IMG/VR virus record: IMGVR_UViG_3300050491_000011
DNA from: a virus
Taxonomy: Duplodnaviria > Caudoviricetes
Length of the DNA stretch: 64,000 nucleotides
Direction: 5' to 3' (one strand)
Shown here: piece by piece, positions 8,951 through 32,277 of the stretch
How positions within the stretch are numbered: position 1 is the first letter of the stretch
How the letters are laid out: each line of letters begins with the position of its first letter
Made by a program: the position numbers and the translations under genes
The notes under the pieces: generated by a model
What the model was told of the DNA's origin: nothing
Databases searched by the model: none
The model's input: the letters and a program-made list of their open reading frames with translations, nothing else

Positions 8951-8995
8951 AGTACCCACTCCTTCGGGAGTGGGTACTGTCACTTCTTTTTTTTA
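8951..8995. terminator. Intrinsic terminator at a convergent junction
   Basis: 12-bp stem AGTACCCACTCC-TTCG-GGAGTGGGTACT plus T-run. Confidence 0.85.
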
Positions 8996-9310
8996 GAGTT
9001 CTTCTTCCGGAATGTCCACCATCGACACCGTCTGACCAGCCAGCTCGTGAGTGCAGTCATTGAGGAATTCCCACTGACCGTTACGAATAAAGCTGTGGCA
9101 AACAACGGCTTCCGTGCAGAACTTATTGAACTGAACCATAATGCTCGGAGAGTAAGTCGGCATATTGACGTTACCGTCCCACTGCCATTGCTGACCGCTC
9201 CCACTTGGCTTATCGATTGCGATGTGATGCATCCACTTACAGCCTGGGCAATAGAGCCCGTGCATATGTCCAGCAAAGAGTTCGATCTTTGGTGAAAGTA
9301 ATTCACTCAT
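8993..9310 (-). CDS. DUF6527-like small Cys/His metal-binding protein
   Basis: CPGC..MH...W.WDG....PTYSPSI...CHSFIRNGQWEFLNDCTH pattern. Confidence 0.75.
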   Translation of the reverse strand: MSELLSPKIELFAGHMHGLYCPGCKWMHHIAIDKPSGSGQQWQWDGNVNMPTYSPSIMVQFNKFCTEAVVCHSFIRNGQWEFLNDCTHELAGQTVSMVDIPEEEL

Positions 9311-9346: not shown

Positions 9347-10189
9347 ATGTTGGCCGTGATAATCAAAGGTAATCCTAAGTTCATCAATACAGCATTAGCG
9401 AGAACGTACTACTCCGACATCGAGAAGTATCTCAAAGCCCTCGGCTATAAGGTTGAATTCGATGAGGGTAATGACTACACCAGACCCCGACAAGATGCTG
9501 ATCTGTACGTCGCACACTCCCGCGGTGTCGGACGTTACGAGTTCATGGAAGAGAGGAATAAATCGAAGTTCGTGAAGCTTGGTAGTCTGGACGGTGCAAT
9601 CGATCCAGTCGATCGTAAGTGGCAGGAAGAAGTCTGGCATCCGGGCATCAAGACGCCACCGCCGCATGAACACTTCATCTTCACCGACATCCAGAAAGAT
9701 GCGATCCTTCAAGTAGGCGGCGTTTCGATTGATTCGCTCAAGAAGGTAAATGGTCTATCCAGTACTCTTAGTCCAGATCTTCGAAGACTCGTAGAGCTGG
9801 CGATGAAGGACCCTTACCTCGGGACGCCTGCATTGAAGAGCAACATGGAGAACATCACACCTCTCCTCTATAAAGGTCGCACCGTTGGTTTCGCCGTTCC
9901 GTTCCGTGAGAGCGACGGTTACTGGCGTACTGGTTCTATCTATATAGAACCCGCATTCCGGCGTAAAGGGATTGCTCACGAATGGATTGAATCCTTCATG
10001 GAAGGTAAAGCTGGACGTGCGTGGATCGATCCACGTAACGCATCGAGCATCGCAGCTTACACTGCGGCAGGCTTTACCAAGTCAGGGCGGCATGTCAAAT
10101 CCCCGATCTCAGGTAATTGGTTTGATGAGTATCTAACCGAAGAAGCCGGCATGGAAAGTGCACCACCTAAGACCTTATTGACCTGGTGA
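9347..10189 (+). CDS. Two-domain protein: N-terminal alpha/beta-like domain (AHSRG) plus C-terminal GNAT acetyltransferase
   Basis: GNAT motif A IYIEPAFRRKGIA and motif B N.SSIAAYTAAGF. Confidence 0.75.
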   Translation: MLAVIIKGNPKFINTALARTYYSDIEKYLKALGYKVEFDEGNDYTRPRQDADLYVAHSRGVGRYEFMEERNKSKFVKLGSLDGAIDPVDRKWQEEVWHPGIKTPPPHEHFIFTDIQKDAILQVGGVSIDSLKKVNGLSSTLSPDLRRLVELAMKDPYLGTPALKSNMENITPLLYKGRTVGFAVPFRESDGYWRTGSIYIEPAFRRKGIAHEWIESFMEGKAGRAWIDPRNASSIAAYTAAGFTKSGRHVKSPISGNWFDEYLTEEAGMESAPPKTLLTW

Positions 10190-10203
10190 TCACTATTATA
10201 TAT

Positions 10204-10470
10204 GTACTAGGCTGCTTCGGGCTGATGAAGCCAAGTATCATGCTAGGTGGGCTCACACGCTCCTCCACCTAGCCACTGAGGTCGGGACGCTCTCCTCGAC
10301 CTAGGCGTTGATGTTCGCGGGTTCGTCAACGTCTTGTTAGGTACTCAGTACTTAGCCGTTTGTTCAGGGTATTGCGAGAGCGCGCCTTGAGCAAACGGAT
10401 AGCTACTGCGCCCCTGTGTGTTATCGGTATTCTCCCCACCCACTGGATTCGTCTGGTGGGTGGGGTTTAT
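10204..10470 (+). ncRNA. Candidate structured ncRNA 1
   Basis: No ORF with an SD; six tandem hairpins plus a terminal 14-bp UUCG hairpin; G-U pairs fit only the + strand; starts at TATG 10201-10204. Confidence 0.65.
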
Positions 10471-10534
10471 GCTGCGTTAATAAACCGCAGTCACACATTA
10501 CCATTTTAGATACACCAACCAAAGGAGAAGTTCC

Positions 10535-10927
10535 ATGACTCACATGCTGAACATCACGCTGGATAAGAACGATCGCGATAAACACTTCACCACTTACAAA
10601 GGTCGTAAGATCTACATCTCACCTCTTGCCGATAGTCGCGATAAGCCAGCCGCACCTGTCATCGCATTCAAAGGTCTTCTAGAAGGACATCTGACCGTCC
10701 ACATGGTTAAGACTTTTGACGGATACACTGACGAGTATCGACACACAATCCACAGTGGCGATTATAAGGGATACGTCTTCGTACTCGACCACGGATTCAA
10801 GATCAGCGTAGAAGAATTCAATAAGCGCTTCTATCCACATTACTACAAAGAAGATGGCGATAGAATCTGGCGCTGTCCTACACGTAGTTTAGACGAAGCG
10901 TGGGAGCATTCAGAAGAATACATTTAA
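10535..10927 (+). CDS. Hypothetical protein (130 aa)
   Basis: ORF with AAGGAG SD, downstream of a CAGTCACACAT motif. Confidence 0.85.
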   Translation: MTHMLNITLDKNDRDKHFTTYKGRKIYISPLADSRDKPAAPVIAFKGLLEGHLTVHMVKTFDGYTDEYRHTIHSGDYKGYVFVLDHGFKISVEEFNKRFYPHYYKEDGDRIWRCPTRSLDEAWEHSEEYI

Positions 10928-10932
10928 ATCGT

Positions 10933-11023
10933 AGTCAAATTAATTACAGTCACACATAGCGAGAGTACATACACACAACGATATCCATTCCGGATACGTT
11001 AAACGACCGTGGAGGTCAACATG
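10933..11023 (+). repeat. Promoter-leader cassette, copy 1
   Basis: 25-nt AGTCAAATTAATTACAGTCACACAT is identical to 32187-32211, and the leader downstream is near-identical. Confidence 0.85.
11005..11017 (+). promoter_or_regulatory. SD-loop leader hairpin (GACC-GTGGA-GGTC)
   Basis: 3 nt before ATG 11021. Confidence 0.75.
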
Positions 11024-13438: not shown

Positions 13439-13480
13439 GTCGTAATCCGTAATTAGTTACAGATGGCGATGTACTACTAT

Positions 13481-13807
13481 GTAGAAACACCCTCGTTGAT
13501 TAGTCAACGCCCAGTTGATACACCTAGCTCTTTTACAATTTGGGTCTCCCTGCCGATAGTCTTGAGTACGGTGCCAATACGGTCACGCTCTTGCTTCCCT
13601 CGCATAGACAACTCGCTTAGCTGGTATAAAGCCCAGCAAACCCCTAGCGGTCTGACAGAGTCTGATCGCGTTCCCTAAGAGTTTGGAATAGTACCAGTAC
13701 AGTACGGGTTCAATCGCCGCGATTGCTTTAGTACTCGAACAAACGTGCCGGGCCTTTCGGAGCATCCCGTAAGAAATATAAAGCCCGGCCTCGCGCCGGG
13801 CTTTATG
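13481..13807 (+). ncRNA. Candidate structured ncRNA 2
   Basis: About 330 nt between an 18-nt promoter-like motif plus TATG and a terminator; several short hairpins; no convincing ORF. Confidence 0.4.
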
Positions 13808-13810
13808 CTG
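13778..13810. terminator. Hairpin terminator, ATAAA...TTTATGC class
   Basis: ATAAAGCCCGGC-CTCGC-GCCGGGCTTTATGCTG. Confidence 0.8.
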
Positions 13811-14733: not shown

Positions 14734-15549
14734 GTGATTTCCGTGAGCGATATTAAAGTCATGGTTAGCGGTGCAGTGGGCGTTGGTAAGAGTCACGTAT
14801 TGGCGGTCATTGAGCGAGCCTTGAATGAGGCTTACGGAGATACCATCAAGATCGAATGTGAGGACACTGAGAGCGAGCGTCGATCTATCGGTGAAGACAT
14901 CCGTGAGTGGCAGCAGCCTACGGTTGAGAAGATCATTCTAACGCCGTATACGGCGTGGCGTCGAGAAGAGATCGTTGAGGATGGCGACGTACCTGCCCTC
15001 GATTACTTTAGTGAGTGGACGACAGGTCGGGTAAGTGAAGTAGTCCCTGCTAATCTGTCTCCGTCTGAAGTCAGCGATATGGTTAAAGCTTTCGATGAAC
15101 TGTATCCTCCGTTCAAGCCTCGGTACGAATCGCTGAATGGTCGGATCATTCGGATGGATGAAGGTCATCCAACTGCGGCTAAAGCAGCTCTCGCCAAACT
15201 GGCTGAGTCTGCGAACTTACTGCACGTCGAAATGTTCATGCCGGGTGATACCAACCAGATGATCGGGCTGGGTTACATGAATGACGCCAACCTCGCAGTG
15301 CAGTACGCGAACCTTATTAAAGGCATGGTCTTCGATATGGCATTCGTTGAACCGTACTTCGGTGATCAGGAAAAGGTCACTACGTTCCGTAATGTAGAAG
15401 TCCAGTCTGCGATGACTCAAAAGAATGACGGTAAGACTTCAGCGTCCGTTGGATTCAAAGTCGGTAAGATGCGCGTCCACCTTCGGAATAAGCACGACAA
15501 CGATCCATTGCAGTTCGGCATTCCTCTTGGCGTTACCGAGGAAAGCTAA
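14734..15549 (+). CDS. Hypothetical protein with N-terminal P-loop-like motif
   Basis: VMVSGAVGVGKSH Walker A-like motif; start codon uncertain (GTG). Confidence 0.7.
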   Translation: MISVSDIKVMVSGAVGVGKSHVLAVIERALNEAYGDTIKIECEDTESERRSIGEDIREWQQPTVEKIILTPYTAWRREEIVEDGDVPALDYFSEWTTGRVSEVVPANLSPSEVSDMVKAFDELYPPFKPRYESLNGRIIRMDEGHPTAAKAALAKLAESANLLHVEMFMPGDTNQMIGLGYMNDANLAVQYANLIKGMVFDMAFVEPYFGDQEKVTTFRNVEVQSAMTQKNDGKTSASVGFKVGKMRVHLRNKHDNDPLQFGIPLGVTEES

Positions 15550-15582
15550 TCCGTAATTAATTACGGGTGATGGAATCAGTAT

Positions 15583-15767
15583 GTGAGAACGTCCTCCGAC
15601 CATTAAAGTCCTAAGCTTGGTCGCCCAATGTCCTGCGTGGTCGTGGGGTGTCTTCACGTTCAATGAGAAGTTGTACGGTTGCGGTATTTCCTGTGCTTAA
15701 ACTCTCATCCGCTCATTGAACATCTTGCACTCCGTCGGTGGCTTCGGTCATCGACGGGGTTATTTTT
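15583..15767 (+). ncRNA. Candidate structured ncRNA 3
   Basis: Starts at TATG 15580-15583; 6-bp and perfect 10-bp stems; 13-bp C(UUCG)G terminal hairpin with 3 G-U pairs; no ORF. Confidence 0.5.
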
Positions 15768-15836
15768 CGCTTTATGCTGCATGTTAGGGATCGTATGTAG
15801 TGAATTGGTTCGCTACTTTTAGCAAGGAACTTCACC

Positions 15837-32186: not shown

Positions 32187-32277
32187 AGTCAAATTAATTA
32201 CAGTCACACATTGTCTCGGTACAACATAACAACGATATCAATTCCTGATACGTTGCAACGACCGAGGAGGTCACATG
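32187..32277 (+). repeat. Promoter-leader cassette, copy 2 (includes SD-loop hairpin GACC-GAGGA-GGTC at 32260-32272)
   Basis: Near-identical to 10933-11023. Confidence 0.85.

Follow-up and report, generated by a model that had tools for sequence, protein, structure and literature searches.

Position numbers given here refer to "the window", a 64-kb stretch that forms the last 64 kb of the 188-kb IMG/VR virus record IMGVR_UViG_3300050491_000011 (approximately 75% complete). In this window, a 345-nt gap (10190–10534) separates a gene encoding a GNAT acetyltransferase fusion protein from a 130-aa open reading frame (ORF), and the gap contains a structured element at positions 10204–10470. The major capsid protein of the record shared 37% identity with that of the Pseudomonas jumbo phage pPa_SNUABM_DT01 and 24–30% identity with its counterparts in Xanthomonas, Ralstonia, and Burkholderia jumbo phages, and the N-terminal domain encoded by the upstream gene matched proteins of 201phi2-1, Psa21, and PhiPA3 at 42–47%. 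These similarities place the phage on a deep branch related to the phiKZ-like (chimallivirus) jumbo phages. We propose that the plus strand of 10204–10470 is probably the gene for a noncoding RNA (ncRNA) of approximately 267 nt, belonging to an uncatalogued, single-copy family in uncultured phiKZ-related (chimallivirus-like) jumbo phages of soil and rhizosphere.

Folding and coding potential of the gap

The plus strand of 10204–10470 folded with a minimum free energy (MFE) of −124.2 kcal/mol, compared with a mean of −93.4 for shuffled sequences (z = −6.08), and none of 200 dinucleotide shuffles folded as well; the minus strand gave z = −3.93. The energy density of the gap (−0.40 kcal/mol/nt) was the second among 23 intergenic gaps folded from this phage. 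Six to seven helices were assigned to the plus strand (Table 1). A previous sequence-only reading of this stretch had listed stems at 10204–10238, 10242–10273, 10279–10302, 10304–10333, 10338–10354, 10356–10398 (with an inner GCG-AGAG-CGC), and 10434–10465, and every one of them was found at those positions. The same reading had noted, in five stems, G-U pairs that would be A-C mismatches on the minus strand. In the model-fitted alignment described below, at least six helices had positions where G-U predominated over the other pair types, indicating that the plus strand is the functional folding strand.

As that reading had also noted, no ORF preceded by a Shine–Dalgarno sequence was found on the plus strand of the gap. 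Short ORFs of 28–49 aa occur on this strand, and their place, frame, and length vary between lineages; no ORF within the element was conserved across the lineages. A search of Rfam 15 with E-values up to 10 gave mir-4524 as the best match (18.8 bits against a threshold of 68, E = 0.53) and two others with E > 4, and within that limit neither ROOL (RF03087) nor GOLLD (RF01998) matched the element. ARAGORN detected no transfer RNA (tRNA) or transfer-messenger RNA genes in the whole window, and a sigma-70 promoter scan of the gap found nothing. No direct or tandem repeats were present within 10100–10600, so the element lacks the tandem short units that mark a ToxI-like Type III toxin-antitoxin RNA next to its toxin gene. 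When the gap and the surrounding 2.2 kb were compared by blastn and megablast with 50,697 phage records, no match was obtained, and nothing on this RNA family was found in the literature on structured ncRNAs of jumbo phages. Four results support the claim of an unclassified structured ncRNA made in the sequence-only reading: nothing in Rfam 15 was better than E = 0.5, covariation across nine lineages (described below) favors the plus-strand helices, TATG is kept at the 5′ edge in every lineage, and the 3′ hairpin is the standard terminator of the phage.

Table 1. Positions of the helices, loop–loop contact, flanking signals, and adjacent genes (window numbering), with loop sequences of relatives.
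Feature	Position	Strand	Description
Upstream gene	9347–10189	+	280 aa; domain of unknown function (phrog_30942) fused to a GNAT acetyltransferase domain
Promoter-like AT-rich box	10190–10204	+	Ends in TATG (10201–10204); predicted +1 at the G at 10204
5′ domain	10204–10241	+	P1, 10204–10208 (GUACU) able to pair with 10426–10430 (GGUAU) and so close the junction; MFE fold
H1	Within 10204–10241	+	Conserved loop motif GGGC(U)GA(A)U
H2	10242–10273	+	9-bp stem GCUAGGUGG/CCACCUAGC; conserved CUCC-containing loop
H3	10279–10302	+	6-bp stem AGGUCG/CGACCU; loop 10288–10294 (CGCUCUC) is one kissing side
H4	10303–10334	+	Conserved GGGU in loop
H5	10336–10356	+	Ends in invariant CUYAGCC junction
H6	10356–10398	+	14-bp stem; apical 10376–10382 (GAGAGCG) is the other kissing side
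3′ domain	10399–10433	+	Small hairpin, conserved CCCC(U/A)GUGUG segment, 3′ strand of P1
Kissing loop–loop pairing	10288–10294 with 10376–10382	+	7 bp; CGCUCUC is the exact complement of GAGAGCG
Kissing loops, L010			H3 UGCUCUC; H6 GAGAGCA
Kissing loops, L011			H3 CACUCUC; H6 GAGAGUG
Kissing loops, L044			H3 GUCCUC; H6 GAGGAC
Kissing loops, L017			H3 UAUCCUC; H6 GAGGAUA
Kissing loops, L021			H3 CGUUCCC; H6 GGGAACG
Kissing loops, L018			H3 AUGUCCUC; H6 GGGGACAU
Predicted intrinsic terminator	10434–10475	+	14-bp G+C-rich hairpin (10434–10465), 9 G-C pairs, UUCG loop, tail TTTATGCTGC; terminator scan
TTTATGCYG sites	3467, 10466, 13802, 15771, 40451, 56100		13 more in the record
Second promoter-like motif CAGTCACACAT	10486–10499	+	Behind the terminator, ahead of 10535–10927; outside the RNA
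(A/T)TTACAGTCAYACAT(A/T) sites	10486–10499, 10945–10961, 32199–32215	+	AT-rich context; about 7 more in the record
Downstream ORF	10535–10927	+	130 aa, without known family

Conservation and covariation across nine lineages

Homologues of the GNAT fusion protein were found in metagenome protein collections at 46–90% identity to that of the window, and the element was located directly behind the GNAT gene region in nine lineages of uncultured jumbo-phage contigs from soil and rhizosphere; one relative was a complete 258-kb genome with terminal repeats. The order shared among the relatives was a DUF6527 gene on the minus strand, the GNAT gene, an ORF-free gap of 345–385 nt, and small genes. Two contigs (L019 and L020) had an extra 168-aa ORF between the GNAT gene and the element and lacked the DUF6527 gene. 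The element occurred once in the window's own 188-kb record and once in the complete 258-kb relative, and three large contigs in which just the N-terminal domain or a distant GNAT gene was present lacked it. No homology across lineages was seen for the first downstream genes, and the GNAT gene was the only gene with a conserved linkage to the element, suggesting that the RNA is tied to the GNAT gene rather than to what follows.

Close variants were present in approximately 20 DNA runs from soil, rhizosphere, root, and compost, representing 14 studies. In the close group (L005, L006, L009–L015, L039, and L040), the DNA of the element was 94–99% identical to that of the window, whereas the two halves of the GNAT gene were 42–96% identical and the downstream gene was 43–59% identical in the loci that reached it and could be aligned. 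This island of identity is sharply bounded by diverged sequence on either side. Conservation of the element therefore far exceeds that of its neighbors and shows strong purifying selection on the sequence. In viral contigs, single-protein scans returned nothing, and a three-motif DNA pattern scan returned 16 loci, one of which (L023, the L018 contig) matched the model described next and 15 of which were chance occurrences. In libraries labelled RNA-Seq, single short contigs of a relative (151 and 202 nt) appeared in two wastewater sets, at least one of which is probably DNA, and they are of no use as evidence of expression; a rice-paddy RNA run contained nothing of the element.

A covariance model (R1) built from six close variants recognized the distant members with bit scores of 136 (L041), 90 (L044), 88 (L047), 72 (L018), 65 (L017), and 35 (L021), and it had no match in the loci from chance pattern hits or in those from named phages. 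In the resulting 14-sequence alignment, which was fitted to the model, 95.9% of the cells formed standard pairs, compared with 37–41% when the partner was slid by one to three columns, and 63 of the 96 pairs had changed on both sides, compared with 14–26 in the slid controls. Pairing was complete in H2 (100% of the cells, with both sides altered in eight of nine pairs) and nearly so in H4 (98%, six of 12 pairs), and both sides were altered in 12 of the 14 pairs of the H6 stem and in 12 of the 14 pairs of the terminator stem, where the loop also swaps between UUCG and GCAA. Within the 5′ domain, such two-sided changes affected four of the five pairs of helix 1 and six of the nine pairs of helix 2 of the alignment. 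The 3′ domain is the least certain portion of the fold.

Because the alignment was fitted to the model, two checks that involved no fitting were used. When the distant members were folded singly, the same series of hairpins appeared, and RNAalifold, applied to a plain MAFFT alignment of the core that included L019, recovered H2–H6 (H2 among them) with 33 of 48 pairs compensatory. The distant relatives have thus diverged in sequence while retaining the helices. The same behavior was visible at short range: within the close group, the few substitutions inside the element compensate for one another. H6 has exchanged G-C for A-U and U-A for C-G pairs, with three double changes in L010, and compensatory changes in this hairpin reach down to the 98%-identical variants L010, L012, and L015. 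In the terminator stem, a C-G pair has become U-A, with a U-G intermediate.

The loops of H3 and H6 are complementary over 5–8 bp in all nine lineages, with sequences that differ from one lineage to another (Table 1). At these kissing pairs, 99% of the cells were paired and five of the seven pairs had changed on both sides (helix 6, scored as a pseudoknot). The covariance model behind the alignment did not include the kissing pairing, and the alignment was therefore not fitted to this contact. A cross-lineage control was only moderately discriminating, because a CU-rich loop faces a GA-rich one in every lineage. The strongest evidence that these comparisons offer for the contact comes from point covariations among the 98%-identical variants. 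It competes with small inner stems of the MFE fold in H3 and H6. The contact, as predicted, implies either a compact three-dimensional fold or pairing between molecules. An anti-Shine–Dalgarno role of the CU-rich loops was also considered; it was dropped for the H3 loop, since this loop pairs with the GA-rich H6 loop, and the CUCC of the H2 loop, at 4 nt, is too short to argue from.

Boundary signals, neighboring genes, and other structured gaps

The sequence (T)ATTATATG, or a close variant in which TATG was always kept, lies at the 5′ edge of the element in all nine lineages. The late promoter of the phiKZ non-virion RNA polymerase is 5′-TATG-3′ with the G as +1 (PMC4666361). The sequence-only reading, which had pointed to TATG at 10201–10204 as this promoter motif, agrees with the checked position, with the presence of the motif in nine of nine lineages, and with that publication; at the level of the motif, the element has the TATG of a phiKZ-type late promoter. 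No terminator was detected between the GNAT gene and the element.

At the 3′ end, the terminator tail belongs to a recurrent sequence, TTTATGCYG, with 19 copies in the 188-kb record, most of them immediately behind a G+C-rich stretch resembling a hairpin arm, and this recurrence indicates that it is the terminator signature of the phage. Motif-bearing terminators of a similar kind have been described in phiKZ and 201phi2-1 (PMC11512511). Since TTTATGCYG itself contains TATG, the late polymerase could also restart there. The second promoter-like motif, which follows the terminator, was retained in every lineage and probably drives the next gene. Its GTMAYAYAT core occurs 12 times in the record, always on the plus strand, and approximately 10 of these copies have the longer (A/T)TTACAGTCAYACAT-like context and lie ahead of genes. 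In this form, the motif looks like a promoter class and resembles the AAanTTAC box of phiKZ middle promoters.

Among the neighboring genes, the upstream gene matched phrog_30942 in PHROG and Pfam Acetyltransf_1/7 at residues 170–244. Both a profile search and the predicted fold matched the GNAT domain only to generic small-molecule or protein acetyltransferases, and this neighbor therefore gives no clue to an RNA link. The downstream 130-aa protein had no match when compared with phages by tblastn. The DUF6527 gene (PF20137, "BubE"), located on the minus strand at 8993–9310, adjoins the GNAT gene in most syntenic relatives, the exceptions being L019 and L020; L017 has two copies. The genes right behind the element (from 10535 onward in the window) differ even among otherwise close relatives, and L009, L011, L012, and L013 are among the relatives' contigs that end within approximately 100 nt past the terminator. 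A hotspot of variable gene cassettes seems to adjoin the conserved RNA.

Two other ORF-free structured gaps near the element, at 13443–13810 and 15547–15780, have the same terminator tail. R1 matched neither, and they are therefore separate elements rather than paralogues. Outside the window, a 204-nt gap (G000:C1:14530–14733) has the top folding density of the genome (−0.46 kcal/mol/nt, z approximately −7 on both strands), and a 1,370-nt gap without a large ORF (G000:C1:89863–91232) gave z values of −2.7 to −4.1. Further structured RNAs may be present in both gaps.

A second, core model (R2) was built from the diverse alignment. In 201phi2-1, Psa21, PhiPA3, PA1C, and FLC9, where PA1C served as a stand-in for phiKZ, itself unsearched, R2 found nothing beyond one 23-nt match at chance level. 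Weak matches in LucasX and DT01 were attributed to chance, since each falls within a gene of the opposite strand. R2 also gave one weak full-length match (16.9 bits, E = 0.003 per genome) in Xoo-sp14, a cultured Xanthomonas phage; it lies in an unannotated gap of 900 nt (MT939492.1 165691–166591; L066:1692–2592) with no ORF longer than approximately 80 aa. This gap has a closed multi-hairpin fold (z = −6.1) and ends in a hairpin followed by CCTTTATGCC. The gap may hold an RNA gene that is distantly related or analogous to the element; since the gap occurs in no other phage record, confirmation of the kinship was out of reach.

Interpretation, alternatives, and relation to known RNAs

The folding, conservation, and covariation results give good support to a structured, strand-specific, uncatalogued RNA family with a tertiary contact. 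The RNA would be made late in infection by the phage non-virion RNA polymerase from the TATG at 10201–10204, and read-through from the GNAT gene would probably add to it, because no terminator separates the two. It would end at the standard phage terminator (10434–10465) with its UUUAUGC tail. Its most likely mode of action would be in trans, by virtue of its fold, with the RNA either serving as a scaffold for bound proteins or associating with itself like an "ornate" RNA. It would not be the leader of the downstream gene, because the downstream genes are non-homologous across lineages and have a separate promoter-like motif behind the terminator.

Several points weigh against the proposal that 10204–10470 is a gene for an independent RNA. 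Its start, end, and expression are all deduced from sequence. TATG is just four bases long, and the longer TATATG box, with eight copies, does not serve as a promoter signal across this genome; the RNA could therefore be no more than the terminal part of the GNAT mRNA, at its 3′ end. The results connect the RNA with no partner or activity, and the neighboring GNAT domain is generic. Structure is a general property of this phage's intergenic gaps, and the folding score is therefore suggestive without singling out the element, which stands out because of the comparative evidence and not the folding score alone. As for that evidence, the pair counts of the fitted alignment lean towards the helices of the model, the distant members are poorly aligned in the 5′ and 3′ domains, where their placement is uncertain, and the near-identity of the close relatives could partly stem from recent recombination and not from selection alone.

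The main rival is that the element is a structured 3′ untranslated region (UTR) of the GNAT mRNA without its own promoter, with a role in cis (protection from 3′ exonucleases or tuning of GNAT expression) or as the source of a 3′-UTR-derived RNA. The element begins only 14 nt past the GNAT stop codon, a distance that includes no terminator, and the GNAT gene is its sole conserved gene association. However, in L019 and L020 the 168-aa ORF intervenes and yet the ATTATATG box directly precedes the element, the TATG box is kept where the surrounding sequence has wholly diverged, and a protective 3′ hairpin would need far less than the approximately 230 nt of almost unchanging sequence and the tertiary contact present here. 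We therefore regard a 3′ UTR as unlikely, though it holds a real share of the probability. A cis-regulatory leader, that is, a riboswitch or attenuator in which a ligand or protein sets the 10434–10465 terminator and read-through into the downstream genes, appears quite improbable. The strong terminator just ahead of a gene array would suit it, as would the partial resemblance of H2 (10242–10273) to the terminator hairpin (10431–10470), which, when L018, L017, L021, L019, and L044 were also considered, was higher within than between lineages (permutation p = 0.013). This likeness could reflect alternative pairing or a shared binding protein, but it is weak and its positions differ from lineage to lineage; moreover, the downstream genes are not homologous between lineages, each lineage has a separate promoter-like motif between the terminator and the next gene, and no Rfam riboswitch matched.

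We consider it very improbable that the element has its role at the DNA level, for example as an origin of replication, a site for packaging or recombination, or an array of protein-binding sites, or that it is a mobile element passing between phages. The sharp-edged island of 94–99% identity in diverged flanks, the folding of the minus strand beyond its shuffles (z = −3.9), and the several relatives' contigs that break just behind the element would fit such a role, but many G-U pairs would turn into A-C mismatches in the complementary strand, UUCG and GCAA replace each other as the tetraloop, and the distant lineages keep the pairings and not the sequence, while a loop–loop contact would be meaningless in duplex DNA. 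Direct and tandem repeats are absent, and the element is single-copy in a fixed syntenic place. We give next to no credence to the gap encoding one or more small proteins: the short plus-strand ORFs (28–49 aa) lack Shine–Dalgarno sequences and vary in position, frame, and length between lineages, and the substitutions track base pairing, not codon positions. An independent ncRNA gene thus remains the reading that we favor.

By the comparisons made here, the element is a member of none of three known groups: the ROOL and GOLLD RNAs, the mapped small RNAs (sRNAs) of phiKZ and 201phi2-1, and the phi29 pRNA. Like ROOL and GOLLD, and also raiA and OLE, it is stand-alone, heavily structured, and noncoding, with covarying long-range loop–loop contacts, and like the phage or prophage "ornate" RNAs ROOL and GOLLD it is phage-encoded. 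ROOL and GOLLD are approximately 500–800 nt in length and have been reported to form multimers. The element, in contrast, is far shorter (approximately 267 nt), has no Rfam match, and lies in a window without tRNA genes. With the chimallivirus sRNAs of phiKZ and 201phi2-1 (sRNA005/sRNA-gp182; PMC11512511), it has in common a related giant phage, a phage promoter (in the element, a predicted one), and a motif-bearing terminator, and in both cases conservation across genera is the main argument for function. Those sRNAs were mapped by ONT-cappable-seq, were selected to be shorter than 250 nt, and are mostly 5′-UTR fragments, and the conserved one lies upstream of a tail gene (PMC11512511), whereas the element follows a GNAT gene and belongs to an accessory region. 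The phi29 pRNA is likewise a phage-encoded structured RNA with complementary, covarying loops, and late expression would be a further likeness if the TATG promoter is real; however, the element has no Rfam pRNA match, differs in size and architecture, and belongs to a Gram-negative-type jumbo phage lineage, and none of the present results points to a packaging role. By analogy with these systems, the H3/H6 complementarity may act between molecules to give an RNA-only multimer or cage, as in ROOL and GOLLD, or a ring, as in the phi29 pRNA, serving a late jumbo-phage step such as packaging, or acting as cargo or a decoy, possibly together with the GNAT protein. We give this extension only a slim chance of being correct.

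Giant nucleus-forming phages are models for viral compartmentalization and for escape from bacterial defense, and their RNA biology is barely charted. An element conserved more strictly than the surrounding proteins must serve some need of the phage, and at approximately 267 nt it is short enough for in vitro probing and cryo-electron microscopy. The possible relative in Xoo-sp14 could give experimental access through a cultured phage. If the RNA binds the adjacent acetyltransferase, self-assembles, or acts on host machinery, it would represent a new kind of RNA player in jumbo-phage infection.
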